From: Candidatus Aminicenantes bacterium
GTDB lineage: Bacteria > Acidobacteriota > Aminicenantia > S016-38
Direction of reading: 5' to 3'
Length of the DNA stretch: 64,000 bases
Assembly (NCBI GenBank): GCA_026991555.1
Contig: JALXBI010000050.1
Coordinates: 245 to 64,244 of the forward strand
This document shows, one piece after another, positions 8,361-62,693 of this stretch; the stretch's first letter is position 1; every line of letters starts with the position of its first letter. The position numbers and the translations under genes are program-made. The notes beneath the pieces are model-generated. The model did not search any database. It worked only from the letters and a program-made list of their open reading frames with translations, and was not told the origin of the DNA.

Positions 8361-8363
8361 CTC

Positions 8364-14039: not shown

Positions 14040-14293
14040 ACACCTCCTTCTAAATACCGGGCAAGGGCTATAACCCCCAGGAAGGCAAGAACCGCATAAA
14101 CCAGGGCCACATCAAGGTAAATTGCCCTGTGGAAGATCTGGGAGAAAAGAACTATCATGGCCGTGGTTATGGTGGTGGCTGTATCCAGTCCCACTGCCCT
14201 GTCGGAAATGGTAGGCCCCTTCACAATCCTGTAAACCGCCAGCAAAGTGGCCAAACTAACAAGGGCGAAAACTATTATAAGGAGATTACTCAA
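14036..14293 (-). CDS. MrpF/MnhF-like subunit
   Basis: 85 aa, VYRIVKGPTISDRAVGLDT pattern. Confidence 0.65.
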   Translation of the reverse strand: MSNLLIIVFALVSLATLLAVYRIVKGPTISDRAVGLDTATTITTAMIVLFSQIFHRAIYLDVALVYAVLAFLGVIALARYLEGGV

Positions 14294-15473: not shown

Positions 15474-15501
15474 TTGACAATATCTATTAAAATATTATAA
15501 T
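15474..15501 (+). promoter_or_regulatory. sigma-70-like promoter (TTGACA, 16-nt spacer, TATAAT) for the histidine-kinase operon
   Basis: Exact consensus hexamers at 15474-15479 and 15496-15501, about 20 nt upstream of the HK start. Confidence 0.45.
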
Positions 15502-17932: not shown

Positions 17933-17948
17933 TGGCATGTTTCTTGCT
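17933..17948 (+). promoter_or_regulatory. sigma-54 (-24/-12) promoter TGGCATGTTTCTTGCT upstream of the REC-DUF4388 regulator gene
   Basis: GG and GC elements are separated by exactly 10 nt, matching TGGCAC-N5-TTGCW. It lies very close to the ATG at 17961. Confidence 0.45.
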
Positions 17949-19134: not shown

Positions 19135-19707
19135 ATGTCGCTTAGAATTAAGTTTGCGGATTTGTTGACCTTTCTTTCCTTCAAGTCCTCACCAAACAAA
19201 CTTATAAGGGTGCTTTTCTCTTACGGCTCACAAAATGGGGAAATGGCCTTTAAGAACGGAGAAATGTGGGAATTAAGATTCCCCGACATGGAAACGGACT
19301 CTGCCATAAACTTTCTCCATGACAGAAAAATAGTAATAAAAGAAATAAAGGAGCTGCTCCCGGGCAATACAATAGAAACCCTGTCACACCTCATTTCCGG
19401 ATTTTCAAAGGAATTTCTTATATACCACGCCCGGGAAGGAGAATTAACGTGGGAAATATCATCTGAAGAATTGAAGGATTTCTATTTAAAATCTAAAAAG
19501 AAAATCCTCGAAAATCTCAAGCACAGAACGGACATTGTATGGCTTGAGAACGACGAAAATCCGGGGATCTATGCTCTTAAGCTAAAGAAGGAGCTCGTGG
19601 TATTCACCTTCTTCAATACGTCCCCCTCTGCCAGGGAAGAATTCTTCAATTCAACTCCGCCTTTCCTCAGAGAACTGTCAAAGATTACATCAGAATGCGT
19701 TCCCTAA
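19135..19707 (+). CDS. stand-alone DUF4388-domain protein
   Basis: IKFADLLTFLSFKSSPNKLIRVLFSYGSQNGEMAFKNGEMWELRF matches the DUF4388 pattern. Paralogue of 60115..60714. Confidence 0.5.
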   Translation: MSLRIKFADLLTFLSFKSSPNKLIRVLFSYGSQNGEMAFKNGEMWELRFPDMETDSAINFLHDRKIVIKEIKELLPGNTIETLSHLISGFSKEFLIYHAREGELTWEISSEELKDFYLKSKKKILENLKHRTDIVWLENDENPGIYALKLKKELVVFTFFNTSPSAREEFFNSTPPFLRELSKITSECVP

Positions 19708-25316: not shown

Positions 25317-25810
25317 AGATAACCCATGTTTTTCAGGGCCTGAGTATAAGTTTTTCCTTCCCTATTCCCCGTGGAAGGAGCACACCCCACATATTTTTTC
25401 CCTTCAAGATAAAGGGAGCAGAAGGGAAGACCGTTTTCCTTTATGGCCTTCCATATCTCAAAATCGCTCAGCCCTTTGAGGGGAAAGATTTCCTTTACAG
25501 GGCCGGAAAGAGGTTTGGGTTTTCTTAGGGGTTCGTAGACTTCGGAAAAGCCCTGCGAGGAAAGATAGGGAAGGAGGAATTCCTCCCTCAGGTAATTGCA
25601 CCATTCATCCCTTCCCCCTTCAAAATCCCCTGCCTCCACATCCAGCCTGATGGCTTTGAACCCGAAGTGCCTCTCCGCTTCCATTAAATAATCGTAAACC
25701 TGAGGGAGATAAAATCCTGGGTCAATGAATAGCACGGCATCAACCTCTCTGGCATAGAGATGCAAAAGAAGGGTGGTTTCCTTATCTCCCACAAACCAAA
25801 GCGCCTTCAT
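25313..25810 (-). CDS. PAPS-reductase-family (adenine-nucleotide alpha-hydrolase fold) protein with a degenerate PP-loop
   Basis: FVGDKETTLLLHL sits where SGGKDS is expected. The C-terminal LPFCSLYLEGKKYVGCAPST resembles the conserved LY..Gy.siGC..CT region. Confidence 0.5.
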   Translation of the reverse strand: MKALWFVGDKETTLLLHLYAREVDAVLFIDPGFYLPQVYDYLMEAERHFGFKAIRLDVEAGDFEGGRDEWCNYLREEFLLPYLSSQGFSEVYEPLRKPKPLSGPVKEIFPLKGLSDFEIWKAIKENGLPFCSLYLEGKKYVGCAPSTGNREGKTYTQALKNMGYL

Positions 25811-27180
25811 CCTAACCCCAGCTTTTTCCAGTAATACCTGAAGGAACGATAGGAAATGCCAAGAAGCTCTGCCGCCTTTTTCTTATCACCCTTGGCCTTG
25901 ACTACCGCGGTTTTTAGGAATTTCCTCATCTCCTCGTTCAGGTAATCCTCCAGGTTAAATTTTCCCTTCATTTCAAGGAATTCTTCTATGTTAATTCCGC
26001 TATCAATCTTCTTTTTCTGAAATAGTTTTTCCGGAAGGTCCTGAACGGTTATATAGGAGCCCGTTTCCATAACCACAGCTCTTTCCACCACATTCTGAAG
26101 CTCCCGTATATTTCCAGGCCAATGATATGTTTCCATGGCCACGAGGGCATCCTTTTCTATCCCGAGAATCCCTTTATCGTGCTTTTTGTTAAACTGGTCA
26201 ATGAAATGCTGGACCAGAAGGGGTATGTCCTGCCTCCTTTTTCTGAGGGGCGGAAGTTCTATTCTTACCACATCCAGTCTGTAGAAAAGGTCCTCCCTGA
26301 ACTCCCCCCTTCTGACAATCTCATCTATGTCCTGATTGGTGGCGGTTATTATTCTCACATCAACTTCTATTTCCTCCTCCCCCCCAACCCTTCTTATTTT
26401 TTTATCCTGGATAGCGGTAAGGAGTTTTGCCTGCATGTTTAAACTCATCCCCGAGATCTCATCAAGAAATAGCGTCCCTCCCTTTGCCACCTCAAACAAT
26501 CCCCTTTTCCTGGAGACCGCTCCGGTGAAAGCTCCCTTTTCGTGGCCGAAGAGTTCGCTTTCCAGAAGGTGTTCCGGGATAGCCGCACAGTTTATAGAGA
26601 CAAATTTCTGCCTCCTTCTGGGACTCAACTCGTGAATAACCCTGGCAAGGAGGGTTTTGCCGGTGCCGCTCTCTCCGGTAATAAGAACATTCACATCGCT
26701 GGGGGCTATCCTCCTTACCAGATCCATGATTTTCTCCATGGCAGGACTTTTGGCCACCAGCTTTTTTTCCTGGTAAATAGCTTGAAGCTCACGTCTGAGT
26801 TCCTCCACCTCCCTGCGGAGGGAACTGGACTCTAAGGCCTTCCTCACCACAATTTCAAGGGTTTCAAGGTCAAAGGGCTTCAGTATGTAATCCTCTGCCC
26901 CCATTTTAAGAGCCTTTACGGCATCCTCCACTGACGCATAAGCCGTTATTAAAATGACGGGGACTTCCGGAGAAGATTTCTTTATTCTTTCCAGAAGGTC
27001 AATTCCATTAAGTTCTCCGGGAAGTTTTATATCGCTTAAAACGATATCAAAATCCTCGTAAATTGAAAGGGCTTCTTCTGCGGTTACCACTCCCTTGGTA
27101 AAATAACCCTTTCCCTGGAAAAAGAGGACCAGTATCTCCAGGAGCTGTTCGTCGTCTTCCACAACTAAGATTTTTTCCAT
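25807..27180 (-). CDS. pilR: sigma-54-dependent response regulator, PilR-like
   Basis: REC, AAA+ (GESGTGKT; FEVAKGGTLFLDEI) and C-terminal HTH domains. Adjacent to the pilS-like kinase and pilBTC. Confidence 0.75.
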   Translation of the reverse strand: MEKILVVEDDEQLLEILVLFFQGKGYFTKGVVTAEEALSIYEDFDIVLSDIKLPGELNGIDLLERIKKSSPEVPVILITAYASVEDAVKALKMGAEDYILKPFDLETLEIVVRKALESSSLRREVEELRRELQAIYQEKKLVAKSPAMEKIMDLVRRIAPSDVNVLITGESGTGKTLLARVIHELSPRRRQKFVSINCAAIPEHLLESELFGHEKGAFTGAVSRKRGLFEVAKGGTLFLDEISGMSLNMQAKLLTAIQDKKIRRVGGEEEIEVDVRIITATNQDIDEIVRRGEFREDLFYRLDVVRIELPPLRKRRQDIPLLVQHFIDQFNKKHDKGILGIEKDALVAMETYHWPGNIRELQNVVERAVVMETGSYITVQDLPEKLFQKKKIDSGINIEEFLEMKGKFNLEDYLNEEMRKFLKTAVVKAKGDKKKAAELLGISYRSFRYYWKKLGLG

Positions 27181-28424
27181 CTTATCCTGACCTCCCCTGA
27201 AGTGGCGGTGAGTATACCGTTTATGCTGGCTATAACATAGGCCAGCTCCAGGGCAGAGAAGCCTTTACCGGTGGGAAGTTTCTTCAGATTCGGACTGAGA
27301 ATCATTGAGATTTCCTCCTCCCTCAGAGGGGGCTCCCTTCTGAGGATAATCTCCCCCTCTTTCACCTCCTCCTCAAATCTTGCCCCATCCAAGTATAAAA
27401 TTTCCTTGAGAATAGCCAGAGCTCTTGTTGGAGATGGATTGGCCCCTAAGGAAGTCCAGCGAAGAAGAATCTCGTTAATTTTCTCTGCCCTTTCCCTGAT
27501 TTTCCACATAAGTTCGTTTTTTCTTTCCTCCTCAAGGCTGGGAAGAAGCTGAAGCAGACCGAGAATGGATGCCAGGGGATTTCTGAGTTCGTGGGCAATG
27601 ATGGATATGGTTTCTCTCACCCCTTCCCTCCTCAGCATAAACCATCTCTGAGTATTGTCGCTTATGACGAAAATTTGCCCGTAGGAAAGGGGAAATCTCT
27701 TTACTGTGTAAACCCTCCCCGAACTTCTTACAGTCCCCTCCTTGCCTATAAGTTCTTGGAGGGGCATCTCCTCGCACCCGCGGCCTTTAAGGACCACCTT
27801 CCCGTCCTGCATTAAAACCACGCATTCGTGGGTATGGCTCAGTATTTCGTCCAGTTTTGAGGCAAAAACCTTCTCCTCCTCCCTCAACATGATTTTTTTC
27901 GTTAACTTGTTTAGTTCATCTCTGGAAATTATCAGTATATAAGCCAGGGCAGGGAATCCCAGGGAGTAAACTAAAAGCCCTGTGGTAAACTCCTTATAGT
28001 TGAAATTAATGTTGGGTATTTTAAAATAAAAGGTAGTGAAGGAAAAGAGAAGGTAGGAAAGCAGTGGGGTCAGAGAGGCTATAAAGAGCCTCTTCCGGTC
28101 CGAAAGGAAGTAGAAGGCCTCCAGTAGCAGGAAAACGAAAAGAAAATAAAGAAGGCTTTCGTATCCCCCGGTATTCAATATTAGATAGGATATGAGAAAC
28201 CAATCTCCTATAAGTTGGGCCACTATAAGCCGGTCTTCTCTTACCCCTATACGAAGAAGGAACAGGTAAAGAACCGACAGGGTAAAAAGAAGACCGAGAA
28301 ACGAGAAGAAAAATCTCACCGGAAATAAGTTCAGGAAGGCAAGATGGATAATTATGAGGGATAGTAGAAGAAAGAAACCTATAAATATGCGAAGTTCTAT
28401 AAGCTTAAGAATCTTGCGGGGCAT
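27165..28424 (-). CDS. pilS: membrane sensor histidine kinase, PilS-like
   Basis: N-terminal polytopic membrane domain of about 6 TM segments. H-box HELRNPLASILG. Degenerate C-terminal ATPase domain. Confidence 0.65.
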   Translation of the reverse strand: MPRKILKLIELRIFIGFFLLLSLIIIHLAFLNLFPVRFFFSFLGLLFTLSVLYLFLLRIGVREDRLIVAQLIGDWFLISYLILNTGGYESLLYFLFVFLLLEAFYFLSDRKRLFIASLTPLLSYLLFSFTTFYFKIPNINFNYKEFTTGLLVYSLGFPALAYILIISRDELNKLTKKIMLREEEKVFASKLDEILSHTHECVVLMQDGKVVLKGRGCEEMPLQELIGKEGTVRSSGRVYTVKRFPLSYGQIFVISDNTQRWFMLRREGVRETISIIAHELRNPLASILGLLQLLPSLEEERKNELMWKIRERAEKINEILLRWTSLGANPSPTRALAILKEILYLDGARFEEEVKEGEIILRREPPLREEEISMILSPNLKKLPTGKGFSALELAYVIASINGILTATSGEVRIRWKKS

Positions 28425-29623
28425 TAAAATCTGCCCAGAAGGTTGAATATGGGAAGGTACATGGAAAGAACTATACCTCCCACCAGACCTCCCAGGAACA
28501 GAACCATTATGGGCTCCATTACGGAGATCAATGCGCTTACTGCAGAATCCACCTCTTCTTCGTAGAAATCCGCTATTTTATTTAACATTGTATCCAGAGC
28601 ACCTGTGGCCTCCCCGGCTTCCACCATCTGACTTATCATAACAGGTATATAGGGACTTTTCCGCAGGGGTTCGCTTAGGCTCTTTCCTGCTGCTACCTCC
28701 TCCCTGGCATCCAGGATCAATTTTTCTATTATGGTATTTCCAGCCGTTTTTGCAGAAATGTCCAGGGCAAGGAGTATGTCCACTCCTGATGTGACAAGGG
28801 TCGCCAGGGTCCTCATCACCTTGGCCAGTGCTCCCTTTAAAATTAGAGGCCCTATTACCCAGAGCTTCAGTTTAAGCTTATCTACAGTCCTCCTCCCACC
28901 TGGAGTGGAAACATAAAATTTATACAGGAGAAAGAGCCCTATCAGACCTCCCATCCAGAGGTAAAATTGGTGGATAAGGAAATTGCTCGTGCTGATAACT
29001 ATTTGGGTAGGAAGAGGCAGTTCAGCACCCAGATCGTGGTAAAGTTTTGCAAAGGCAGGAATAACCTTCCAGAGGATAAAGGCCGTAATAAGAATAGCTA
29101 TGGTTAAAACGGCTATAGGATAGGCCAGAGCTGATTTTATTTTGCTCACCAGGGCCTTTATTTTTTCCAGGTAATCCGCAAGTCTCTGCAGGATTATATC
29201 AAGGGTTCCACCAGTCTCTCCGGCAGCTACCATATTTACATATAGGGAATCAAAGACCTCCGGATGTTTGGCAAAGGCGTTGGAAAGGGAACTTCCGCCC
29301 CTTACATCTTCGGTCACCTTTTCCAGCACTGCTTTAAACCTTTTGTTGCTCTGTTGCTCTGCTAAGGCAGCAAGCGCCTGGTCTATAGCAAGACCTGCGT
29401 TTACCATAACAGAGAGTTGTCTGGTAAATATAGCGAGTTCCTTAAGGCTTGCGGCTTTTTTAAGCCTCGGAAGCTTGAGTTCAAAACCCTTCTTTTTAAG
29501 GTAGGATATCTGAATACCTTCTCTTAATAGAGCTCTCCTTACGTCTTCTTCCGAGGGGGCAGCCCTCTCGCCGGTTACCATCTGCCCCATCCTGTTGATG
29601 CCTTTAAAAACAAAAACAGGCAT
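28424..29623 (-). CDS. pilC: type IV pilus inner-membrane platform protein PilC (GspF family)
   Basis: Two GspF repeats, 399 aa, typical PilC architecture. Confidence 0.85.
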   Translation of the reverse strand: MPVFVFKGINRMGQMVTGERAAPSEEDVRRALLREGIQISYLKKKGFELKLPRLKKAASLKELAIFTRQLSVMVNAGLAIDQALAALAEQQSNKRFKAVLEKVTEDVRGGSSLSNAFAKHPEVFDSLYVNMVAAGETGGTLDIILQRLADYLEKIKALVSKIKSALAYPIAVLTIAILITAFILWKVIPAFAKLYHDLGAELPLPTQIVISTSNFLIHQFYLWMGGLIGLFLLYKFYVSTPGGRRTVDKLKLKLWVIGPLILKGALAKVMRTLATLVTSGVDILLALDISAKTAGNTIIEKLILDAREEVAAGKSLSEPLRKSPYIPVMISQMVEAGEATGALDTMLNKIADFYEEEVDSAVSALISVMEPIMVLFLGGLVGGIVLSMYLPIFNLLGRF

Positions 29624-29632: not shown

Positions 29633-30775
29633 CTACATGGATTTTCTTAACTTGGTTTCTATTACACCCGCCATGGCCGGAGGGGTGTAAATATGCCTCA
29701 CCGCTGCAGGCCCTCTTCTTATAAGATCATGAAGCTCCTCAGGATAGGAACTGGCCCCCATGGCGGTCTCTAAGGTGATAAGCCGCTTAAAATAAAGGGC
29801 TGCAAGGGACTGATTAAAGGTGTGCATCCCAGTGGCTTCCTGACCTGTTTGCATTGATGAATAGATCTGATGAATCTTGTCCTCCCTGATGAGGTTCCTT
29901 ATGGCTGGAGTGGGGACTAACACTTCGGTGGCGAGAATCCTTCCCCTGCCATCAGCCCTGGGAAGAAGGGATTGGGTTACTATACCTTCAAGTATCATGG
30001 AAAGCTGGGTTCTAACCTGGGACTGCTGATGGGGAGGGAATATGTCTATTATCCTGGTTATGGTTTGAGCCGCAGAATTGGTATGGAGGGTGGCCAGGGT
30101 AAGGTGCCCGGTTTCGGCAATCCTCAGGGCCGCCTCCACAGTTTCCAGATCCCTCATCTCACCGATGAGAACCACATCCGGGTCCTCCCTGAGCACAGAC
30201 CTCAGGGCATTGTGAAAGGACTTGGTGTCGGTATGAATTTCCCTCTGGTTTATAAGCGCCCTCTTGTGAGAATGAAGATATTCAATGGGGTCTTCTATGG
30301 TTACTATGTGGACTGGCCTTTCCTTATTAATCTTGTCAATCATAGTGGCCAGAGTGGTGGATTTTCCTGAGCCTGTGGGCCCTGTGACCAGAATGAGTCC
30401 CCTGGGTTTCTCACAGAACTTCTTAACCACCGGAGGAATTCCCAGCTCCTCAAAGGACCTTATTTCATAGGGAATCTTTCTGAAGGCCCCTGCCACTGCA
30501 CCTCTCTGCATAAAAACATTGGCCCTGAATCTGGCAAGCCCCTTTATGCCGAAGGAGAAATCAATTTCCCAGTTTTCCTCAAAACGGTGCTTCTGGGTAT
30601 CGGTTAATATGGAATATATGAGGCTCTTGGTCTCTGGAGGGGATAGAGGGGGAAAGTTGAGCCTTTCCAGCGCCCCGTTTACCCTTATAACAGGAGGAGA
30701 GCCTGTGGTTACATGCAGGTCTGTTCCTCCCCTTTCTATCATGATCCTCAAAAGTTCCACCAGAGTAAGAGCCAT
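29633..30775 (-). CDS. pilT: twitching-motility retraction ATPase PilT
   Basis: Walker A GPTGSGKST, then DIHV...IEDPIEY and the PilT C-terminal region. Confidence 0.85.
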   Translation of the reverse strand: MALTLVELLRIMIERGGTDLHVTTGSPPVIRVNGALERLNFPPLSPPETKSLIYSILTDTQKHRFEENWEIDFSFGIKGLARFRANVFMQRGAVAGAFRKIPYEIRSFEELGIPPVVKKFCEKPRGLILVTGPTGSGKSTTLATMIDKINKERPVHIVTIEDPIEYLHSHKRALINQREIHTDTKSFHNALRSVLREDPDVVLIGEMRDLETVEAALRIAETGHLTLATLHTNSAAQTITRIIDIFPPHQQSQVRTQLSMILEGIVTQSLLPRADGRGRILATEVLVPTPAIRNLIREDKIHQIYSSMQTGQEATGMHTFNQSLAALYFKRLITLETAMGASSYPEELHDLIRRGPAAVRHIYTPPAMAGVIETKLRKSM

Positions 30776-30785: not shown

Positions 30786-32537
30786 TTAATACTTCACTGT
30801 TTCCCTCACCACTTCCTCTATGGAAGTAATACCCTGTTTTATTTTCTCAAGGCCGCTTCTTCTGAGGGTAATCATACCCTGTTCTATGGCCTTTCTCCTT
30901 ATTTCCGCAGATGAGGCTCCGGAAAGTATGAGTTCCTGAATTTCCTCCGTCACCTCAAGGACCTCAAAAAGACCTATCCTGCCCTTGTAACCCGTGTTAT
31001 TGCAGTGCTTGCAGCCAACGGGTTTGTAAACGGTGACATTTTTCGCCTCCTCCGGGGTAAATCCGAGCTCTATTAGAACCTGAGGAGGCACATCTGCAGG
31101 CTCCTTACATTTATTGCACAGCCTTCTTACGAGCCTCTGAGCCACTATAGCCACCACGGAGGTTGCCACTAAGAAGGGCTCTATTCCCATGTTTATGAGC
31201 CTGGTAACAGCGCTGGCAGCATCATTGGTATGGAGGGTGGAAAGAACCAAGTGACCCGTAAGGGCTGCTTTAATGGCTATCTCAGCGGTTTCGAAATCCC
31301 TTATTTCTCCCACCAGTATTATGTTGGGGTCCTGCCTTAGAAAAGCCCTGAGGGCTGATGCAAAGGTTAACCCTATGTCCTCCCTTATGTGGACTTGGTT
31401 TATTCCATAAAGATTAAATTCCACAGGGTCCTCGGCAGTCATTATATTAACTTCCGGGGTATTGAGGGTGGAAAGGGCAGAGTAAAGGGTATTGGTTTTT
31501 CCGGAGCCTGTGGGGCCGGTCACCAGTATCATTCCCCAGGGCCTTTTTATGGCCTTCTGGAATTTTTCAAGACTTTCCGGTTCAAAACCCAGCTGGGTAA
31601 GGTCAAGTCGGAGCTGATCCCTATCCAGAATCCTTATAACCACCTTCTCCCCGAAAATAGTGGGAAGAATGGAAACCCTCATGTCCACTTCCTTTTTCCT
31701 TCCCTCGTCTGTTTTCACCTTCATCTTTATTCTGCCATCCTGGGGAAGCCTTTTCTCGGCTATGTTAAGATGGGACAGAATCTTGATTCTTGAAACTATA
31801 CCGTCCTTCATTCTGAGGGGAGGTGTCATAACGGGATGAAGCACACCGTCTATTCTGTATCTAACCCTTAATTCCTTCTCGTAAGGTTCTATATGTATGT
31901 CTGAAGCTCCCCGGTTTATGGCTTCCCTTAAAATAAGATTAACCAGCCTTACTACGGGTTTTTCCTCCGCCTCCTTGCTCAGTGTCCTCACATCCGCCTC
32001 TTCCTCCTCCTCCACCATTTCCAGATCCTCTGCCTCCAGATCAAGGTCAGCAAATTCATCCATGCTTTCTCCCATTATGTCTTCCATCTCCTCTTTAACC
32101 TCTATTTCGTGCTCAGAACCGTAAAGTTTCTCTATGGCTTCTATTATAGAAGACTCCGAGGCCACCGCCGGCTGTATGTTAAGGCCGGTAAGGAATTTTA
32201 GCTCCTCTATGGCGTAAAGATTGGTTGGGTCGGCCATAGCTACAGTTAAAGTAGCCCCTGCCCTGTCAACGGGAACAAGCATGTATTTTCTGGCGATCTC
32301 CGCGGGAACCCATTCTTTTACCTTCGGGGAAAGTTCAAACTTCGAAAGGTTTATATAGGGATAACCGTATTGCCTGGAAAGAACAGAAGTAACTTGCTCT
32401 TCAGTGGCAAAGCCCAATTTAATTAATATGGAACCGAGCCTGCCCCCATGGAGTCTCTGATATTCCAGAGCTTCTTCAAGTTGTGAGGGTGTGATTATCC
32501 CCTCTTTGACCAGGAGCTCACCCAATTTGCTCGCCAT
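30786..32537 (-). CDS. pilB: type IV pilus assembly ATPase PilB (GspE family with N-terminal T2SSE_N domain)
   Basis: Walker A GPTGSGKT. Tetracysteine CNKC...CKHC. N-terminal MshEN-like domain. Confidence 0.85.
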   Translation of the reverse strand: MASKLGELLVKEGIITPSQLEEALEYQRLHGGRLGSILIKLGFATEEQVTSVLSRQYGYPYINLSKFELSPKVKEWVPAEIARKYMLVPVDRAGATLTVAMADPTNLYAIEELKFLTGLNIQPAVASESSIIEAIEKLYGSEHEIEVKEEMEDIMGESMDEFADLDLEAEDLEMVEEEEEADVRTLSKEAEEKPVVRLVNLILREAINRGASDIHIEPYEKELRVRYRIDGVLHPVMTPPLRMKDGIVSRIKILSHLNIAEKRLPQDGRIKMKVKTDEGRKKEVDMRVSILPTIFGEKVVIRILDRDQLRLDLTQLGFEPESLEKFQKAIKRPWGMILVTGPTGSGKTNTLYSALSTLNTPEVNIMTAEDPVEFNLYGINQVHIREDIGLTFASALRAFLRQDPNIILVGEIRDFETAEIAIKAALTGHLVLSTLHTNDAASAVTRLINMGIEPFLVATSVVAIVAQRLVRRLCNKCKEPADVPPQVLIELGFTPEEAKNVTVYKPVGCKHCNNTGYKGRIGLFEVLEVTEEIQELILSGASSAEIRRKAIEQGMITLRRSGLEKIKQGITSIEEVVRETVKY

Positions 32538-37930: not shown

Positions 37931-37946
37931 TGGCATGGTTTTTGCT
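37931..37946 (+). promoter_or_regulatory. sigma-54 promoter TGGCATGGTTTTTGCT upstream of pilA
   Basis: GG-N10-GC spacing with TGGCAT and TTGCT elements. Followed by RBS AAGGAGG and the ATG at 37983. Consistent with PilR-dependent pilin expression. Confidence 0.5.
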
Positions 37947-37982: not shown

Positions 37983-38438
37983 ATGAAAAGACAAAAGGGA
38001 TTCACCCTTATCGAGCTTTTGATCGTGGTGGCCATAATCGGAATTCTGGCTGCCATTCTAATACCCAATCTGCTGGTAGCTATCCAGAAATCCAAACAGA
38101 AATCCACCATGGCGGACCTGAGGAACATCGCCACCGCCGTGGAGGAATACAGGCTGGACAACAATGTTCCCCCGTCCTCTCTGGAACTGCTCACCCAGAA
38201 CAGCGGCTTCTACATCAAGGCGATAAAGACCATTGACGCCTGGGGACACACCTTTGATTATCAGGTTAACCAGGATGATTACTGGGTTGGTTCTCCTGGA
38301 AGGGACTCCGGATATACCGCCGGTCTTACTGGATGCTCTACCCTTTATGACCCTCCGTCTCAGCTTAGCGATTTTGACAACGATATAATCTTCTCTGACG
38401 GCCAGCTTATCTGCGGACCCAGGTCCAAGCAGCAGTAA
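37983..38438 (+). CDS. pilA: type IV pilin (prepilin with N-terminal methylation motif)
   Basis: MKRQKGFTLIELLIVVAIIGILAAI is the class-III signal peptide, with G|F cleavage and Glu at +5. Confidence 0.8.
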   Translation: MKRQKGFTLIELLIVVAIIGILAAILIPNLLVAIQKSKQKSTMADLRNIATAVEEYRLDNNVPPSSLELLTQNSGFYIKAIKTIDAWGHTFDYQVNQDDYWVGSPGRDSGYTAGLTGCSTLYDPPSQLSDFDNDIIFSDGQLICGPRSKQQ

Positions 38439-43361: not shown

Positions 43362-43855
43362 TGCTTGTTTTTTTGCTAATCCTGAACATACTTTACAATA
43401 CCCACTCTGCGGTTTGCCAGTTTGCTGAAACCGTAAAGGTCCAGGGGGATGTGTTAAAGGAGCATGGTTATTTTTACTTCAAAAGGGGCGAGGGGATAAG
43501 GTGGGATTATATTGGGCAAGAGAAAAAAATCTTTCTCCTGGCCAGGGGGAAAATGTGGGAATACCATCCTAAGGAAGGCTTTTTCAGAACTTACGAGATA
43601 AGAAGGAGTTTCTGGGAGCTCCTGCAGGACCCAGGGAAATGGAAGGAGATAGTTAAGGAAGTGCAGGGGAAAAACGGAAAATTTTTCGTAAAACTTAAAG
43701 GAGGAGAGGAGATTTTGATGGAAGTAAAAAAGAACAGGATCAGAAAAATTTCCTTTGAGGATACAAGTTTTGAATTTCATAATTGCCGATATAACATTTC
43801 CCTGCCCTCTTCCCTTTTTAATCCAACCTTTCTCTCCCGGGTTCGTAAAAAATAA
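43361..43855 (+). CDS. LolA-like periplasmic lipoprotein-carrier-fold protein
   Basis: FKRGEGIRWDYIGQEKKIFLLARGKMWEYHPKE matches the LolA FRW.Y...G..W.Y core. Confidence 0.45.
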   Translation: MLVFLLILNILYNTHSAVCQFAETVKVQGDVLKEHGYFYFKRGEGIRWDYIGQEKKIFLLARGKMWEYHPKEGFFRTYEIRRSFWELLQDPGKWKEIVKEVQGKNGKFFVKLKGGEEILMEVKKNRIRKISFEDTSFEFHNCRYNISLPSSLFNPTFLSRVRKK

Positions 43856-44418
43856 TGGATGAAAAGGAACTGGCTTTAAGGGCAAAAAATGGAGACAAGG
43901 AGGCTTTTGAGATGCTGGTAAGAAGATATCAAAAAGGACTTTACAACTATATATACAGGCTCACCGGAGAGAGGGAGTTAGCGGTGGACTTCACCCAGGA
44001 AGCTTTCCTGAGGGCCTACACTTCCATGAAAAAATATAACCCTTCCTATCATTTTTCCACCTGGCTCTGGAGGATAGCCCACAACTTAGTGGTGGACCAT
44101 TTCAGAAAGGGAAAACTGAATACCGTTTCCCTTCAAATGGGAGAAGAGGGGGAGGAAGTAGAATATGATGTGGAAAGCAATGAGCGCGGACCCTTTGAAA
44201 ATCAGCTTAATCGGGAGAGAAAGAGGATAATCATGCAGGCCCTGGAAAAATTACCTCCCACCCTGAAGGAACTCATTATTTTACGGCATTTCAACGAGCT
44301 TTCCTATCAGGAAATTTCAGAGGTTACCGGTATGCCCTTTCATGAGGTAAAGAGCAAATTATATAGGGCAAGGGAAAAATTAAGAGCACTTCTGGAGGCT
44401 TATCGTGAAGCATTATAA
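43855..44418 (+). CDS. ECF-subfamily RNA polymerase sigma factor
   Basis: Sigma-70 regions 2 and 4 (FLRAY, HFNELSYQEISEVTGMP). Confidence 0.85.
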   Translation: MDEKELALRAKNGDKEAFEMLVRRYQKGLYNYIYRLTGERELAVDFTQEAFLRAYTSMKKYNPSYHFSTWLWRIAHNLVVDHFRKGKLNTVSLQMGEEGEEVEYDVESNERGPFENQLNRERKRIIMQALEKLPPTLKELIILRHFNELSYQEISEVTGMPFHEVKSKLYRAREKLRALLEAYREAL

Positions 44419-44875
44419 CTACGAAGAAATCTATCTCTACCTGGATGGCGAAATGTCTCCCATGGAAAGGAGTCTTTTTGAGGACCACATTTTAGTATGT
44501 GAGGAATGCGCAGAAAAACTGCAAAGGGCTAAAGCCCTCTTTCAGGGGATAAAACTGGAGGAAGAGAACCCTCCCGTGGATATAGCCTCTCTGGTTATGG
44601 CGAAAATAGATAAGAAAAGGAAGCTTCTGCCGGTAATCTACGGGATTTTCATATTATTGATTGCCCTCCTGACCGTTCCAGTATTCTTCGGTCTGGACAG
44701 AGCCATATTTTTCTATTACATAATCTTTGATTCTTTAAACAGAGTTTACCTTGTATCTAAGGCTGGACTTTCATATTTGTTTTCCCTTAAAATTCCAGCC
44801 TGGGTGTTTGTGGGGGCAGGGTTGATGCTATTTCCTGTATACTTTGCCCTTCGCAAAATATGGAGGAATACATGA
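44405..44875 (+). CDS. anti-sigma factor (zf-HC2 type) with TM segments
   Basis: HILVCEECAEKL zinc-finger motif directly downstream of the ECF sigma gene, overlapping it by 14 nt. Confidence 0.6.
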   Translation: MKHYNYEEIYLYLDGEMSPMERSLFEDHILVCEECAEKLQRAKALFQGIKLEEENPPVDIASLVMAKIDKKRKLLPVIYGIFILLIALLTVPVFFGLDRAIFFYYIIFDSLNRVYLVSKAGLSYLFSLKIPAWVFVGAGLMLFPVYFALRKIWRNT

Positions 44876-45720
44876 GGAAAACACTGATTTTTCTCCTCTT
44901 AGTTTTTTCTCTGGCCGCTTCCATAAAGGTGGAAAAGGGGGAGGTAAAAAACGGAGATGTGGTTTGCATAGGCGATACCGCTGTGGTGGAGGGTAAAATA
45001 AACGGGGATTTAGTTGCCATAAAATGCGACCTCACCTTTTCCGGTAAGGTGAACGGAGACCTCATAGCTATATTCTCAAAGGTTAAAGCAGAAGAAGGGA
45101 CAAGGGTTAATGGGGATCTGGTGGAGATTTTCTCCAGCGGAAATACTTCTGCGATAAAGGTGAACGGTTCCAGGGTAGGCATGACAGGGGGACCCGGAAG
45201 AAGCTTCCTGCACAAGCCAAAATTCATTCACATAACAGGGACAGGGAATTTCTTTGACAGCTACAAATTCGTGTCCTACCTGATCCTGTGGGGAATTCTT
45301 TCCCTACTTATTTTTCTCCTCTTTCAGAAAAACGTAATGTTAGCAGCTTCATCCCTTCTTAACCGGCCCTTTAATCACTGGCTCAGGGGGCTGCTCATCT
45401 TCATTGTTCTTATTATCCTCCTGATAATATTCGCCATCCTCAGTGCCATAATTATAGGGATTCCCTTTCTTATAATTGTGGTCTTCCTGATTATTGGAGC
45501 CATACTCTTCGGCTACACTTCCATCTTTTACGCCGTAGGCAATCTCATACTCAACAGCGAAGTTCACCCGGTGTATTCCGTCCTTCTGGGGATGGTTATG
45601 TTTTCCTTCGTAAAATCCCTCTACTTAGTGGGTTCCATTCTGAGCCTGATCATGATTCCCTTAGCCTTCGGCATCACCCACTCCACCTCCTTTGGCAGAA
45701 AACTCCCTCCCTCAGAATGA
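44860..45720 (+). CDS. membrane protein with bactofilin-like V-x-GD repeats
   Basis: Repeated VNGDLVAI, VNGDLIAI and VNGDLVEI units. C-terminal polytopic region. Confidence 0.45.
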   Translation: MEEYMRKTLIFLLLVFSLAASIKVEKGEVKNGDVVCIGDTAVVEGKINGDLVAIKCDLTFSGKVNGDLIAIFSKVKAEEGTRVNGDLVEIFSSGNTSAIKVNGSRVGMTGGPGRSFLHKPKFIHITGTGNFFDSYKFVSYLILWGILSLLIFLLFQKNVMLAASSLLNRPFNHWLRGLLIFIVLIILLIIFAILSAIIIGIPFLIIVVFLIIGAILFGYTSIFYAVGNLILNSEVHPVYSVLLGMVMFSFVKSLYLVGSILSLIMIPLAFGITHSTSFGRKLPPSE

Positions 45721-53250: not shown

Positions 53251-53327
53251 CTGTCCCCTTTGGTGAATTCGGACCTGTCCCGTTTTTCAGGAGAATTGGA
53301 AATTCGGACCTGTCCCTAAAATTTCGG
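53251..53327. repeat. two tandem copies of the GGAC-CT-GTCC short repeat in a divergent intergenic region
   Basis: gaattcggacctgtcccgttttt at about 53265-53287 and gaaattcggacctgtccctaaaatttcgg at about 53298-53327. Confidence 0.7.
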
Positions 53328-57508: not shown

Positions 57509-57559
57509 CCTGATTTCGTAGGAAAGGTTCGGAGTGGTAAATTTGAAATAAAAAGAATC

Positions 57560-57776
57560 AAAATTCGGACCTGTCCCGTTTTTGGAATCAAAATTCGGAC
57601 CTGTCCCGTTTTCAAAATTCGGACCTGTCCCGTTTTTGCAAAATTCGGACCTGTCCCGTTTTTGGGCTCGTTTTTGGAATCAAAATTCGGACATGTCCCG
57701 TTTTTGGGCTGGAAGAAGGGAGAATTTTACCGCCCGGCCCCTGACACCTAACACAGCATTCTGTCCCTAAAATTCG
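57560..57776. repeat. tandem array of five ~24-bp direct repeats AAAATTCGGACCTGTCCCGTTTTT plus a partial terminal copy
   Basis: Copies start near 57560, 57590, 57614, 57640 and 57682, with spacers of 1-18 nt. The fifth copy has one substitution (ACATGTCC). The partial copy ctgtccctaaaattcg is at 57761-57776. Confidence 0.85.
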
Positions 57777-57867: not shown

Positions 57868-59097
57868 TTAAATTCTTTTCAGAATATTAACAGTCCTTTC
57901 AAGATTGTATTTGGCAAGGCACACATCTCCTTCCTGCCCTAGCAGAAGCATAATTAGGTTTTTCCCATGACGGTGAACCAGGAAATTGCCTTCAGAAGCT
58001 TCGGTCAGGAAACTCCTAAGTTCCTGAGCAGTGGCCTTTTTGTAAACATTGAATGCCAGGGCAAACAACCCGGTCATCCTTGAGAAAAACTCCTCCATTT
58101 TCTCCTTCTCTCTTTCGTTTATAACATCAATGGCCATTATTCTTTCATCTTCCCCTATAATGGCCGATGCGAGGTAACCCGGAACCGTTCTCAGGCTGGC
58201 CAGCACTTCTTCCTGAGAAAGCAGAGGTTCGTGGGCCTCTATTTCCTCCTCTTCCATTTCATGACGTCCCAGGGGTTCTTCATCCATGGGGGGTAATTCC
58301 GAGGTATCCGCCTCTCTGGGTTCTTTCTGCTCCCGGGGAGGTTCCTCCTGGGCAGAACTCATTTTTGCAGTGTCCACTTCTTTTGCTGTTTTTCCCTTTG
58401 TCTCACCCATGCCCTTCCTTTCGTCCTTTATCTTTATGGACTCCATTATGAGCTCTTCCAGGGGCTTTTCTACGGTTATTAATTTCCTCTTTCCCAGCCT
58501 TTTCATGACGACGATGTTCACGTTTTCCCAGGTTAGTATTTCAAGGGCTGCTTCTTCTCCCTCCTCCTTTTCTGTCTTAGCGTGCACGAGAACCCCTTCG
58601 TCAAAGTGGAGGGCCCCCCTTCTTCCGTCCTTGGTGGTTACTATCATGGTGCATGTTTTCTCCTCATACTGGATGAGCTGGGCCAGGTGCGCCGCAGAGA
58701 GAAAGGTAAATTCTTCCTTCATGAGGAGGTCCTGGTCAAAGACTTCAAGGATGGCCTTGGCCAGCTGGTCCAGGGATATGGGCTTTTCCAGATACCTTAT
58801 GGCTCCTATACTTTCGGCTTTTAATTTTATCGGTAAAGAGCCGTAGGCTGTTATAAGCACGAAGGGAATGTAAGGAAATTCCTGCACCACAAAGGATAAA
58901 AGGTCCAGCCCGTCAACTTCCGGCATCTTAAGGTCCGAAACCACCAGGTCTATTTTCTCCTTCCGGAGTATTTCCATGGCCTTTTTTCCTGATGAGGCGA
59001 AGATGGGCTCTATCCGATCCCTGTATTTTTTCAGACCATCTTTAAGGGTTAAAAGAAGGTTTTCATCGTCATCTACTATGAGAACTTTTTTGGTCAT
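57868..59097 (-). CDS. response regulator: REC plus DUF4388 plus acidic linker plus Roadblock/LC7-like domain (paralogue of 17961..19022)
   Basis: Aligns by eye along its whole length with the regulator at 17961. REC: VLIVDDDENL...DLKMPEVDG. DUF4388: FTFLSAAHLAQLIQYEEKTCTMIV. Confidence 0.65.
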   Translation of the reverse strand: MTKKVLIVDDDENLLLTLKDGLKKYRDRIEPIFASSGKKAMEILRKEKIDLVVSDLKMPEVDGLDLLSFVVQEFPYIPFVLITAYGSLPIKLKAESIGAIRYLEKPISLDQLAKAILEVFDQDLLMKEEFTFLSAAHLAQLIQYEEKTCTMIVTTKDGRRGALHFDEGVLVHAKTEKEEGEEAALEILTWENVNIVVMKRLGKRKLITVEKPLEELIMESIKIKDERKGMGETKGKTAKEVDTAKMSSAQEEPPREQKEPREADTSELPPMDEEPLGRHEMEEEEIEAHEPLLSQEEVLASLRTVPGYLASAIIGEDERIMAIDVINEREKEKMEEFFSRMTGLFALAFNVYKKATAQELRSFLTEASEGNFLVHRHGKNLIMLLLGQEGDVCLAKYNLERTVNILKRI

Positions 59098-59109
59098 ATT
59101 AAACCTCCC

Positions 59110-60111
59110 TTATTTCTCGTCATTTTTTTCCTTCCAAAGGGGAAGGTAAACCATAGCCAGGGCCCCTCCTGAGGCATTTACGATTTCCAGATGCCCTCCC
59201 ATGGCAGTTACGAGTCTTTTAGAAATCGCAAGCCCCATGCCGGTTCCGTTCTTTTTGGTAGTGAAGAAAGGAACAAAAATTTTCTTGAGAACCTCCGGAG
59301 GAATGCCGGGGCCGCTATCGTATATGGATATTCTTGCGAAACCCTTCATGGTATGGACTCTTACCTGGATTATTTTTTCTCCCCGGGTTTTTTCCATGGC
59401 TTCTACGGAGTTCTTTATCAGGTTTACTAAAACCTGCCGGAGGGCCATGGGATCTGCTTTAACAAAGACATCGGGGATTTCGTCCAGGAATATGCTTATA
59501 TTAGAGGACTTTTTGAGTTCATCACCGAACAAAACCGTTTTGGGGATAAACTCCCGGAGATTAACTTTTGTCAGGGACAATCTGCCAACTGCCAGGAAGT
59601 TTTTCATGGTTGCCAGAACCTTTTCTATGGATTCCGCCTCCTGCATTATTCTGTTCAGGTATTCCTCAATTTTCTCAGGGGCAAATTCTTTGTACTGTTC
59701 CCTTAAAACCCCCAAGGAGAGCTTTATTATGTTAAGGGGATTGCCTATCTCATGTCTCAGTATTGAAAAGAGCTGGTTGAATCTTTCAACGGCCCCCCTT
59801 TCCCTTTGCAAACCCAGAAGAAAAAGGGCTTCGGAAATGTTTTTTATGAAAAAAATCAGGTATTTTCCGTACTCCTCGAAAACATAGCCGTAGGTTTCCT
59901 GACCTATGGAAATTTCGGACATTTTAATGTCTTTTTTTATGGCGTCTTCAAGGAGATTCGGCAGGATTACTTTTAATCCTTTTTCCATAAGTTGGTTGAG
60001 AAATCTGTTGGAATAAAGAATGGAATATTTTTCCGGGTTTATTATTCCAAAGCCCACGGAAACGCTATTGATGATTTCCTCAAGGGCAAATTCTACTCCG
60101 TTTACCTGCAT
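59110..60111 (-). CDS. soluble sensor histidine kinase (paralogue of 15519..16499)
   Basis: H-box HEIGNPLNIIKLS. G-boxes DSGPGIP and GTGMGL. Confidence 0.8.
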   Translation of the reverse strand: MQVNGVEFALEEIINSVSVGFGIINPEKYSILYSNRFLNQLMEKGLKVILPNLLEDAIKKDIKMSEISIGQETYGYVFEEYGKYLIFFIKNISEALFLLGLQRERGAVERFNQLFSILRHEIGNPLNIIKLSLGVLREQYKEFAPEKIEEYLNRIMQEAESIEKVLATMKNFLAVGRLSLTKVNLREFIPKTVLFGDELKKSSNISIFLDEIPDVFVKADPMALRQVLVNLIKNSVEAMEKTRGEKIIQVRVHTMKGFARISIYDSGPGIPPEVLKKIFVPFFTTKKNGTGMGLAISKRLVTAMGGHLEIVNASGGALAMVYLPLWKEKNDEK

Positions 60112-60114
60112 AGT

Positions 60115-60714
60115 TTACCCGGTAATTTTGGCGATGTTATTGAACAGGATTTTTATTTTGCTGATGGAGCTTCTGGAGCCCACGGCCACCACGGCGTTGA
60201 GCTCCGGTTTTAATTTCACCCCTACAAATATGAGCCCGTTCTTCATCTCCCTTTCAATCATTCTGGCTGTAAGGGATGCCCCCCTCGTAAGATGGGGAAG
60301 AATCTCTGTTCGCACAAGCTTTAGGTTCTCCTCCTCAGGTTCGGGAAGGCTCTCTATGTAAGGCTCACCGTGGTCGTCCAGTATAACAAATCCCTTTACA
60401 TCGTCTATGTTTTGAAGATGCTGGGTCATGAAGCTGGAGAGAAGGTTCATAGCAGGAGCGGATATAACCTCCCTCATGTCCATCAGTTCAATTTCCCGCT
60501 CCTGTAGAAGGGCATCCAGGGCCTCATCCCCTTCAGAATGCCCATACTTGATCCACCTGACCTCACCGTCCCTGTAAAGAAGATGTCCCAGCCCCCTTTT
60601 TCCCTTAAAGGTAAGCCTGAGAACTTCCTCCGGGCTTTTCAGCGACAGGAGGGTAAGGACATCGTCAAATTTCATCCTGATTCCCATAACAAACCAACCC
60701 TCAAAACCGTTCAA
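60115..60714 (-). CDS. stand-alone DUF4388-domain protein (paralogue of 19135..19707)
   Basis: KFDDVLTLLSLKSPEEVLRLTF pattern. The annotated start is a TTG; an ATG start 27 nt downstream with a GAGGG RBS is also possible. Confidence 0.45.
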   Translation of the reverse strand: MNGFEGWFVMGIRMKFDDVLTLLSLKSPEEVLRLTFKGKRGLGHLLYRDGEVRWIKYGHSEGDEALDALLQEREIELMDMREVISAPAMNLLSSFMTQHLQNIDDVKGFVILDDHGEPYIESLPEPEEENLKLVRTEILPHLTRGASLTARMIEREMKNGLIFVGVKLKPELNAVVAVGSRSSISKIKILFNNIAKITG

Positions 60715-60730: not shown

Positions 60731-60759
60731 AAAATATCAAAAATCTCCTATTGTGTCAA
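60731..60759 (-). promoter_or_regulatory. sigma-70-like promoter (TTGACA, 17-nt spacer, TATTTT) for the minus-strand DUF4388-HK-RR operon
   Basis: The reverse complement of 60731-60759 reads TTGACAcaataggagatttttgaTATTTT. Confidence 0.35.
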
Positions 60760-61196: not shown

Positions 61197-61254
61197 ATCC
61201 TAATTATAGCAGAGATTGACAGGGGTGAAGGCCTTGATATATAATTTTTTACCT

Positions 61255-61328
61255 GGCGGCGTAGCTCAGTTGGTTAGAGCATGCGGCTCATATCCGCAGC
61301 GTCGGGGGTTCAAATCCCTCCGCCGCCA
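61255..61328 (+). tRNA. tRNA with anticodon CAU (elongator Met, or Ile2 after lysidine modification)
   Basis: Cloverleaf: acceptor GGCGGCG/CGCCGCC, D-arm AGCTCAGTTGGTTAGAGC, anticodon stem TGCGG/CCGCA with loop CTCATAT, T-arm GGTTCAAATCC. CCA is not encoded. Confidence 0.85.
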
Positions 61329-61337
61329 TTTTTTTTT

Positions 61338-62693
61338 ATGCCCTACAGAAAGTTCAAGGAAACGGTCAGAAAAAATTCTCTTATTTCCCCGGGGGATAGA
61401 ATTCTGGTGGCTTTTTCCGGAGGACCGGATTCCACGGTTCTTCTCCATTTTCTTTTTCTTTTTACCGAAGAGATAAATTATTCTTTGGCAGTGGCCCATT
61501 TTAACCACGGCTTGAGGGAGGAAGCGGACCATGAGGAGGAATTCTGCAGGCAAAGGGCCAGGGAATACGACCTTCCCTTTTTCTCGGCTAAAGAGGATGT
61601 GAGAAGATTTGCCAGAGAAAGGGGATTAAACCTTGAGGAGGCAGGCCGGATTCTGAGGTATGAATTTCTGGACCAATTGGCCAGGAAAGAGGGCTACAAT
61701 AAAATTGCCACAGGCCATACCCTTTCCGACCAGGCTGAAACCCTCCTTTACAGAATGCTCAGGGGAGCTGGGACCAGCGGTCTTTCCGGAATACCTCTGC
61801 TGCGGGAGGGAAAATACATAAGGCCCCTGCTTAATATTTCCCGCAGGGAAATAATGGACTTTATTAAAAGGGTGGGAATACCCTTCCTTGAGGACCCGTC
61901 CAATCTGGACCTTTCCTTTGACCGAAACTGGTTAAGGCACAAACTGATCCCTATTTTAAAGGAAAGGTTCTCCGGGATTGAGGAAACTCTGGCCCGGGAA
62001 GCGGACATCCTCTATCACGAAAACCTGTGGATTGATTCCTTGGTGGAGGGGGAACTGGAGAAAAGACTTAGGGGAAGAAGACTGAAGGTTGAGGACTGGG
62101 ATTTGCTGCCTCTGGGTTTTAAAAGGAGACTTTTAAGGGGCTTTTTGAGAAAAATGAGGGGGAACCTCAGGAGAATAAATTTTGACCACATTGATCACCT
62201 GGTTAACCTGAAGCCTGGAGAAGAATACTACATACCCGGAGGGGAAAGGGTTTTAAGGCAGAGCAGGCATTTCTTTTACCTTGGAAAAATTCCCGAATAC
62301 AGGGAGCTTTACCTTGAGATTCCCCGCCCTGGTGAATACGAGGCGGAGGGGTTGTGGAGGATAAAACTCAGGGAATGGGAAGGAGAGGGGGATTTTTCCA
62401 GGAGGGCCGTTGCCTACATCTCCGGGGTGGAACTTCCCATCGTGGTAAGAAACTGGAGGCCCGGCGATAAATACACTCCCTTAGGCTCTGACAGTCCCAG
62501 GAAGCTTTCCAACATGTTCAACGCCGGGGGGATTCCCGGGCCTTTAAGGAGGTTCATTCCGGTTTTTGAAAAGGACGGGGAGATAATCTGGGTTTATTCC
62601 CTTCCAGTGGCTGAGCGGTTTAAGTTTACAGGTAAGGGCTTTGTGGTAAAGGTAATCCCGCTGCTTCCGGTTTTTCAGGCCCTGGTGGATTGA
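61338..62693 (+). CDS. tilS: tRNA(Ile)-lysidine synthetase
   Basis: PP-loop SGGPDSTVLL plus TilS downstream domains. Start taken at the ATG at 61338, because the track ORF start at 61281 lies inside the tRNA. Confidence 0.85.
   Translation: MPYRKFKETVRKNSLISPGDRILVAFSGGPDSTVLLHFLFLFTEEINYSLAVAHFNHGLREEADHEEEFCRQRAREYDLPFFSAKEDVRRFARERGLNLEEAGRILRYEFLDQLARKEGYNKIATGHTLSDQAETLLYRMLRGAGTSGLSGIPLLREGKYIRPLLNISRREIMDFIKRVGIPFLEDPSNLDLSFDRNWLRHKLIPILKERFSGIEETLAREADILYHENLWIDSLVEGELEKRLRGRRLKVEDWDLLPLGFKRRLLRGFLRKMRGNLRRINFDHIDHLVNLKPGEEYYIPGGERVLRQSRHFFYLGKIPEYRELYLEIPRPGEYEAEGLWRIKLREWEGEGDFSRRAVAYISGVELPIVVRNWRPGDKYTPLGSDSPRKLSNMFNAGGIPGPLRRFIPVFEKDGEIIWVYSLPVAERFKFTGKGFVVKVIPLLPVFQALVD

Follow-up and report, generated by a model that had tools for sequence, protein, structure and literature searches.

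The 64-kb window analysed here (64,000 nucleotides of contig JALXBI010000050.1 from Candidatus Aminicenantes bacterium) carries two signalling modules, each with a histidine kinase (HK), a response regulator (RR) built of receiver (REC), PATAN (DUF4388) and Roadblock domains, and a small protein. The Der GTPase of the window is 72% identical to a protein from a metagenome-assembled genome of Candidatus Aminicenantes and less than 50% identical to those of other phyla, which by itself would place the DNA tentatively in or near Aminicenantes (Acidobacteriota). Sequence comparison indicates that modules 1 and 2 are true, ancient paralogues in all three components. As the best explanation of the whole, we consider it probable that both belong to a widespread family of kinase and REC-PATAN-Roadblock systems with a protein-interaction output, and that module 2 is a self-contained three-gene two-component operon on its own sigma-70-type promoter. 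As a genomic observation, two old two-component operons that are paralogues of each other are nothing unusual. Among two-component outputs, however, response regulators that act purely through protein-protein interaction form the least understood class, and this cassette, which exists in several diverging copies in a genome and has relatives in at least four phyla, is a compact and apparently complete example, comprising a soluble kinase, a REC-PATAN-Roadblock regulator and a receiver-less PATAN-Roadblock partner.

The first-pass annotation had aligned the three module 2 proteins with their module 1 counterparts by eye. The computed pairwise identities lie far above background and bear this out: BLASTP matched the regulators at 35% identity and 54% positives over 400 columns (E 2e-65), the kinases at 41% identity over 321 amino acids (E 4e-65) and the small proteins at 29% over their N-terminal 89 amino acids (E 4e-12), the last pair being 26% identical in a full-length MAFFT alignment. 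HisKA/HATPase and REC domains are alike across all two-component systems, and the sole match between the modules at the DNA level, 103 nt at 71% identity (blastn), sits in the kinase catalytic core, as might be expected if the likeness were background two-component similarity, or else had arisen by an assembly error or a segmental duplication that took place recently. We regard this as extremely improbable, and the computed identities together with the orthologues already refute it. The similarity extends into parts that are not generic, namely the kinase N-terminus, the PATAN and Roadblock domains and the small protein; the REC domains of the two regulators are 52% identical to each other, against 27–38% to the other receivers in the window; and each module has orthologues of its own in other assemblies. 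Protein identities of 26–41% with no meaningful DNA similarity also rule out that the duplication is recent or that a repeat has collapsed.

The modules lie 38 kb apart on opposite strands, with the gene order HK-NtrC-RR-small in module 1 and small-HK-RR in module 2. Because the gene order differs and there is almost no nucleotide match, the duplication is old and not a simple inverted copy. The identity matrix further indicates that the split between the modules predates the divergence of related lineages known from metagenome-assembled genomes (MAGs).

Proteins and operon organisation

Regulator 2 is recognised by Pfam through Response_reg (1.8e-22, 80 bits) and DUF4388 (PF14332; 38 bits, 2e-9, residues 131–228), and regulator 1 scores 38.8 bits against the latter family (cutoff 25), in agreement with the REC and DUF4388 domains first assigned to both proteins. 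In an alignment of 18 receivers, residues D9, D10, D55, A84, K105 and P106 are invariant and T83 is largely conserved (P0066 and P0101 are among the exceptions); from these residues, the regulator 2 receiver is predicted to be competent. In the AlphaFold2 (AF2) model of regulator 2 (pLDDT 80.3), the PATAN region of ~100 amino acids has a β-α-β-β-β-α-β topology with no α-helical insertion, and the C-terminal domain has the Roadblock topology α-β-β-α-β-β-β-α.

The regulator 2 C-terminus scores under the cutoff for Robl_LC7 (PF03259; E 0.013, 15.7 bits, cutoff 23), and 10 of the 15 aligned family C-termini match that family, the best at 3.7e-17. Searched against the PDB, the family profile of the regulator C-termini finds 7yh1_D (1.6e-14), dynein LC7 (1e-6), MglB (5e-5), CvnB5 (3leq, 5.7e-5) and MglC (~1e-4). 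Taken together, family profiles and AF2 models predict a Roadblock fold for this domain, so that the Roadblock-type C-terminus proposed earlier stands, though with a sub-threshold score for the protein's own sequence. The acidic, Glu/Pro-rich linker was likewise correctly ascribed to regulator 2 only: its 67 amino acids include 18 Glu and 7 Pro, carry a net charge of −11 and are predicted to be disordered (pLDDT <50 at residues 232–291), whereas the linker of regulator 1 measures ~23 amino acids with a net charge of +2. No DNA-binding or enzymatic domain was found in regulator 2, whose output consists of PATAN and Roadblock only.

HK2 matches HisKA (1.1e-9) and HATPase_c (1.6e-24) above the Pfam cutoffs and contains an H-box RHEIGNP with His120, an N box at residue 230, DxGxG at 265 and GxGxGL at 289; HK1 has equivalent motifs. 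The sequence motifs of a classical two-component pair are present, with the H-box and the N, G1 and G2 boxes in the kinase and the acidic pocket, Asp, Thr/Ser and Lys in the receiver. A search of HK2 for a membrane segment found no hydrophobic stretch (maximum KD19 1.36), and the kinase is predicted to be soluble and catalytically intact. Among curated families it comes nearest to AtoS, ZraS and NtrB, without reaching the cutoff of any. The N-terminal sensor region of ~105 amino acids is possibly PAS-like, the corresponding part of HK1 giving a weak PAS_7 match.

Neither small protein matches a Pfam or NCBIfam family. Small protein 2 comprises a short PATAN-like core (residues 3–73) followed by a Roadblock/LC7-fold domain (77–189), with no receiver. 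Its AF2 model (pLDDT 84.8, pTM 0.75) shows β-α-β-β-β-α-β and then α-β-β-α-β-β-β-α, the N-terminal unit sharing its topology with the PATAN core of the regulator. The top Foldseek matches in the PDB are all Roadblock folds (E 1.5e-4 to 1e-3, target TM 0.55–0.71), among them the Asgard Roadblock proteins 9jq8/9jue, LAMTOR, MglC (7ct3) and MglB (3t1r). In hhalign, the small-protein and regulator families align colinearly across PATAN core and Roadblock (83% probability, E 8.7e-6). The small proteins fall under the DUF4388 gathering threshold and are linked to PATAN by profile evidence: their family profile matches a bona fide DUF4388 in P0145, and the family member P0144 gives a sub-threshold DUF4388 match (E 2.3e-4, 21.6 bits, cutoff 25). 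On this evidence, the small protein is modelled as a copy of the output half of the regulator, devoid of a receiver, and this Pfam-less protein thereby gains a new annotation as PATAN core plus Roadblock. The earlier DUF4388 label was thus right about the PATAN core, although Pfam gives no such match and the Roadblock-fold C-terminal domain had been overlooked. A word-indexed search recovered 4 relatives and an exhaustive profile search of 1.84 billion representatives recovered 10, and the family appears narrow and fast-evolving at the sequence level. Proteins of 171, 193 and 207 amino acids that adjoin distant regulators (L092, L093) were tested as candidates and are not members.

The three genes of module 2 are tightly packed, with gaps of 3 nt between the small-protein gene and HK2 and 12 nt between HK2 and regulator 2, and a GGGAGG Shine-Dalgarno sequence precedes the regulator gene. 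For small protein 2, the ATG at 60687 is more probably the start than the mechanically called TTG at 60714, because gene calls in relatives use it and the module 1 counterpart is also 190 amino acids long. As first described, module 2 has a sigma-70-like promoter, a consensus match (TTGACA-17-TATTTT with a TG extension; Table 1) located ~44 nt upstream of this ATG, inside the 101-nt gap after a Nitro_FeMo-Co gene, and it has no sigma-54 activator: Pfam finds no AAA+ protein of this kind in the module, and a motif scan finds no −24/−12 element between 60714 and 60816.

Module 1, on the other hand, has both hallmarks of a sigma-54 system that module 2 lacks, an AAA+ sigma-54 domain and a −24/−12 promoter-like element. 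This element, TGGCATGTTTCTTGCT, differs from TGGCAC-N5-TTGCW by one mismatch and ends 12 nt upstream of the regulator 1 ATG. Since it stands directly upstream of regulator 1, the arrangement suggests a branched circuit in which regulator 1 and small protein 1 are expressed under the control of the NtrC-type activator. A Rex-type redox repressor gene (14768–15397) is divergent from module 1, and adjoining it is an Mbh/Mrp-like membrane complex cluster (window 4357–15397) with NuoD-, NuoC-, NuoB- and NuoH-like subunits, a 1047-aa antiporter-like subunit, MnhB/MbhE, MnhE and a ferredoxin/pyridine-nucleotide oxidoreductase.

Distribution and diversification of the family

The architecture had been taken to be rare, which it is not. 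At least 582 regulator homologues were found at E≤1e-5 among 8000 candidates scored, mostly from MAGs of Nitrospirota, Desulfobacterota ('Deltaproteobacteria') and Thermodesulfobacteriota, several of them bearing the JGI annotation 'CheY-like / Roadblock-LC7-MglB', and trios of kinase, sigma-54 activator and REC-PATAN regulator recur in Nitrospirota, Desulfobacterota, Myxococcota and Acidobacteriota. A scan of GTDB representatives with the regulator alignment was affected by the generic receiver motif, more than half of the 80 loci listed being unrelated enterobacterial or other regulators; loci L005–L028 were used, and the window's own species was not among the matches listed. Across GTDB representatives, the order kinase, sigma-54 activator, REC-PATAN occurs in L005, L006, L007, L012, L017, L021, L026 and L093, and a kinase lies directly upstream of the REC-PATAN gene, as in module 2, in L013, L020, L022 and L027. 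Because the kinase-activator-REC-PATAN order recurs in this way, module 1 represents the widespread arrangement, with module 2 as an activator-less variant.

Module 2 persists as an intact activator-less cassette in at least three lineages. The small-HK-RR order is found at 99% identity in L001/L002, with different flanks at 57/67/63% identity in L003/L004, and at 41/40/38% identity in L085/L086. Units of the module 1 type also occur, as HK-NtrC-RR in L091, small-HK-NtrC-RR in L087 and small-NtrC-RR in L089. In a third type, a REC-PATAN gene is co-transcribed with one or two genes for H-NOX (HNOB) haem sensors and divergent from an HK-NtrC pair (L087:11566–13226, L089:11701–13900), which hints, from gene content, that some modules of the family respond to NO or O2.

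L089 comes from GCA_054004935.1, the MAG that carries the 99%-identical copy of module 2, and another contig of this MAG carries two more REC-PATAN modules. If the window organism is conspecific with it, it probably has at least four modules, and not the two copies first counted. The earlier proposal of a duplicated, diverging regulatory system holds in so far as the modules are paralogous and diverging; they are, however, part of a paralogous family expansion, not the outcome of a single duplication.

Comparison with orthologous loci reveals a new pattern, an opposite domain-wise constraint in the two lineages. Between module 1 and L091, identity is 57% in HK, 72% in AAA+, 47% in PATAN and 86% in Roadblock, and between module 2 and L003 it is 57% in the small protein, 67% in HK, 76% in PATAN and 50% in Roadblock, so that PATAN is the most and Roadblock the least conserved part in the module 2 lineage, and the two change places in the module 1 lineage. 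We also find new evidence for shuffling of the Roadblock module. A stand-alone Roadblock gene of 114 amino acids (L085:4962–5306), 84% identical to the regulator 1 C-terminus, lies directly upstream of small-HK-RR; in P0141, a PATAN core of the small type is fused to a Roadblock of the regulator 1 type; and in L093 a 298-aa PATAN+Roadblock protein, a stand-alone Roadblock gene and a ParA-like ATPase follow downstream of an HK-NtrC-RR trio. The flanks of L085 and L091 are identical (Helicase_C_3, Rhomboid, NfeD and DUF6600 at one end, YkuD and DUF401 at the opposite end), and between them L091 has HK-NtrC-RR and L085 has the stand-alone Roadblock gene and then small-HK-RR. This suggests either that an ancestor had both modules in tandem, followed by deletions, or that a cassette was replaced.

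Proposed mechanism and candidate targets

In the system that we propose, a cytoplasmic signal at the N-terminal region of HK2 would set autophosphorylation of His120, and the phosphoryl group would pass from His120 to Asp55 of regulator 2. We infer this transfer from the 12-nt spacing of the two genes, the co-conservation of the cassette and the parallel divergence of its components. Phosphorylation of Asp55 would then alter partner binding by the PATAN and Roadblock domains. Roadblock/LC7, LAMTOR and MglB proteins function as dimers, either homo- or heteromeric. Since Roadblock domains work as dimers, regulator 2 and the small protein would most likely form a Roadblock heterodimer, or else competing homodimers, and the small protein could serve as a constitutive partner or an antagonist of the regulator. 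In module 1, HK1 would presumably also feed the NtrC-type activator and thereby a transcriptional branch.

The best lead to a target, which we put forward tentatively, is the type IV pilus motor or the cell-polarity machinery. It comes from three observations: the PATAN domain of cyanobacterial regulators binds the PilB1 N-terminus and PilC's N-terminal domain (Han et al., bioRxiv 10.1101/2021.06.11.447907), genes for PATAN proteins in some cases neighbour mglA/mglB (PMC4316618), and pilus genes lie between the two modules (Table 1). The PatA-type regulators of cyanobacteria (PatA, PixG, PixE, LsiR, PilG; PATAN-REC) resemble regulator 2 in joining PATAN, their output domain, to a CheY-like receiver with no DNA-binding or enzymatic output, and the window also holds type IV pilus genes. 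Regulator 2 nevertheless falls outside this group, as its REC comes first, its short PATAN core lacks the insertion and a Roadblock domain is appended; its partner is a soluble HisKA kinase of the AtoS/NtrB-like type, not the CheA of a chemotaxis-like system, and its lineage is not cyanobacterial.

Several points weigh against this account. Phosphotransfer, dimerisation and target are all inferred, and a literature search found no experiment on any REC-PATAN-Roadblock protein, nor any description of a REC-PATAN or REC-PATAN-Roadblock regulator. Module 1 is 6 kb and module 2 is 19 kb away from the pilus genes, which are unlinked to the cassette in the relatives L003, L085, L087, L089 and L091; with a PATAN core that lacks the PatA-type α-helical insertion and a reversed domain order, transferring the PilB/PilC interaction to these regulators is a long extrapolation. 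The Roadblock sequences of the window are under the Pfam threshold, their assignment resting on family profiles and AF2 models, and the small-protein model is built on 5 sequences. As for the transcriptional branch, the count of sigma-54 motifs over the whole window is not above chance, so that the case for TGGCATGTTTCTTGCT rests on its position, and its distance from the ATG leaves no space for a leader or Shine-Dalgarno sequence; either the mRNA of regulator 1 has almost no leader, or regulator 1 has its true start codon or promoter elsewhere.

The Roadblock domains could instead constitute a phosphorylation-controlled regulator of the GAP/GEF type, acting like MglB on a small Ras-like (MglA-type) GTPase or on another NTPase, such as a ParA/MinD ATPase, encoded elsewhere in the genome, with PATAN serving only for localisation. 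The Myxococcus xanthus proteins MglB and MglC (with MglA and RomR) share the Roadblock/LC7 fold, a link to receiver signalling and dimer formation with the proteins studied here. RomR joins its receiver to a Pro/Glu-rich disordered region, as regulator 2 does. The family-profile and Foldseek matches to MglB, CvnB and MglC given above agree with such a role, as do the reported proximity of PATAN genes to mglA/mglB, an MglA-like gene within 8 kb in 2 of the 24 surveyed REC-PATAN loci, both distant (L015, L028), and the ParA-like ATPase gene that adjoins the Roadblock genes in L093. No MglA-like GTPase was detected, however, in the 64-kb window or in the loci of close relatives searched with an MglA query sequence; the sole GTPase in the window is the housekeeping protein Der, and the cognate GTPase of an MglA/MglB module is thus missing from the neighbourhood. 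In addition, Roadblock is fused here to REC and PATAN in one polypeptide, the sequence similarity to MglB is marginal, and the proteins matched best, in structure and in sequence, are generic Roadblock proteins. We therefore consider an MglB-like function unlikely.

The pairing of a kinase with a Roadblock protein also recalls the Streptomyces conservons (CvnA kinase, CvnB Roadblock, CvnC, CvnD GTPase), in which a histidine kinase is encoded with a Roadblock protein in several paralogous copies per genome (PMC4316618). CvnA, however, sits in the membrane and carries a HAMP domain and an LPxR tail, whereas the kinase here is soluble, and conservons lack REC and PATAN and always include CvnC (DUF742) and the CvnD GTPase, unlike module 2, which has no adjacent DUF742 or GTPase genes.

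A third possibility is that the regulator has no target of its own and either competes with the NtrC-type activator or another regulator for phosphoryl groups or binds the kinase and tunes the transcriptional branch, module 2 then being a degenerate branch that has lost its activator. The regulator gene directly follows an activator gene in many lineages, the sigma-54 promoter-like element before regulator 1 would be expected of a feedback component, and the REC domains resemble NtrC-family receivers, as the kinases resemble AtoS and NtrB. Indeed, the kinases and receivers are closest to the NtrB/NtrC-type systems (AtoS/AtoC, ZraS/ZraR), and a genuine sigma-54 activator is part of module 1 and of many relatives; module 2 differs from this group in having no AAA+ or HTH output, the PATAN-Roadblock regulator forming a second, non-transcriptional branch. 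Strong conservation of PATAN in the module 2 lineage and of Roadblock in the module 1 lineage would be needless for a mere phosphate sink, PATAN and Roadblock domains also occur without REC, stand-alone or as small proteins, and module 2 persists intact without an activator in several lineages. We accordingly rate this possibility as rather improbable.

Returning to the protein-interaction output that we favour, a more far-reaching version, which we offer as speculation with a low chance of being correct, is that the trio constitutes an unrecognised, widespread 'GTPase-less' polarity or motor switch. A phosphorylated receiver would remodel a Roadblock heterodimer that docks through PATAN on PilB/PilC or another polar NTPase, and insulated paralogues would feed different signals (including NO/O2 through H-NOX in sister modules) into the same machinery. 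If the target were worked out, it could provide a function for thousands of 'CheY-like/Roadblock' annotations and would test whether PATAN/Roadblock control of pilus motors or polarity extends beyond cyanobacteria and myxobacteria.

Repeat array and other features of the window

Table 1 Features of the two modules, the pilus genes and the repeat array. Positions are those of the window; residue numbers are given for protein domains.
Feature	Position	Strand	Remarks
Sigma-70 promoter ahead of HK1	15474–15501	+	12/12 consensus matches
Histidine kinase 1 (HK1)	15519–16499	+	326 aa, paralogue of HK2
NtrC-type sigma-54 activator	16490–17857	+	REC-AAA+-HTH_8; Pfam Sigma54_activat 2e-68, Response_reg, HTH_8
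Sigma-54 promoter-like element TGGCATGTTTCTTGCT	17933–17948	+	TGGCAT-N5-TTGCT
Response regulator 1	17961–19022	+	353 aa; REC-PATAN-short linker-Roadblock
Small protein 1	19135–19707	+	190 aa, paralogue of small protein 2
NtrC/PilR-like activator	25807–27180	-	
PilS-like kinase	27165–28424	-	
PilC/T2SSF	28424–29623	-	
PilT	29633–30775	-	
PilB with MshEN domain	30786–32537	-	
Near-consensus sigma-54 promoter TGGCATGGTTTTTGCT ahead of pilin gene	37931–37946	+	
Pilin gene	37983–38438	+	
Repeat array, AAAATTCGGACCTGTCCCGTTTT core	57558–57706		five copies, 26-bp imperfect-palindrome unit; 0 expected by chance
Response regulator 2	57868–59097	-	409 aa; REC-PATAN(DUF4388)-linker-Roadblock
Regulator 2 domains			REC 1–121; PATAN/DUF4388 core 128–233; acidic linker ~232–291; Roadblock/LC7 295–408
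Histidine kinase 2 (HK2)	59110–60111	-	333 aa; Pfam HisKA + HATPase_c
Small protein 2, preferred start	60115–60687	-	190 aa, ATG at 60687
Small protein 2, mechanical ORF call	60714–60115	-	199 aa, TTG start
Sigma-70-like promoter, module 2	60731–60759	-	TTGACA-17-TATTTT, TG-extended; 10/12 consensus matches

Between the convergent 3' ends of the regulator 2 gene and a beta-helix protein gene lies a repeat array whose span, first given as 57560–57776, we correct to that in Table 1. RNA folding of the array showed no excess (z = −0.03), and a consensus scan flagged no canonical terminator in it. A singleton copy of the 26-bp palindromic unit is present at 53264–53286, and the 99%-identical locus L001 (7394–7581) has a longer array with more copies and the same singleton. 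The array resembles a small intergenic element of the REP type, dispersed and of strain-variable copy number; the earlier view that it bounds the copy 2 region is not supported, and the element has no demonstrable link to the duplication.

Beyond module 2, a perfect sigma-70 promoter (TTGACA-18-TATAAT, 12/12 matches, 61216–61245, + strand) lies directly upstream of tRNA-Met (61254–61329). The mechanical open reading frame at 61281–62693 overlaps this tRNA, so that the start of the TilS gene must be further downstream; relatives call a protein of 451 amino acids. At the other end of the window, positions 1–4300 have a low G+C content (0.37–0.40, against ~0.47 elsewhere) and contain two open reading frames with no Pfam match and an AbiEii-type toxin gene (3654–4268); this region may be a mobile or defence islet. 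Finally, genes for an ECF sigma factor, a zf-HC2 anti-sigma factor and a protein that weakly matches bactofilin stand in a row at 43855–45720 (+ strand).

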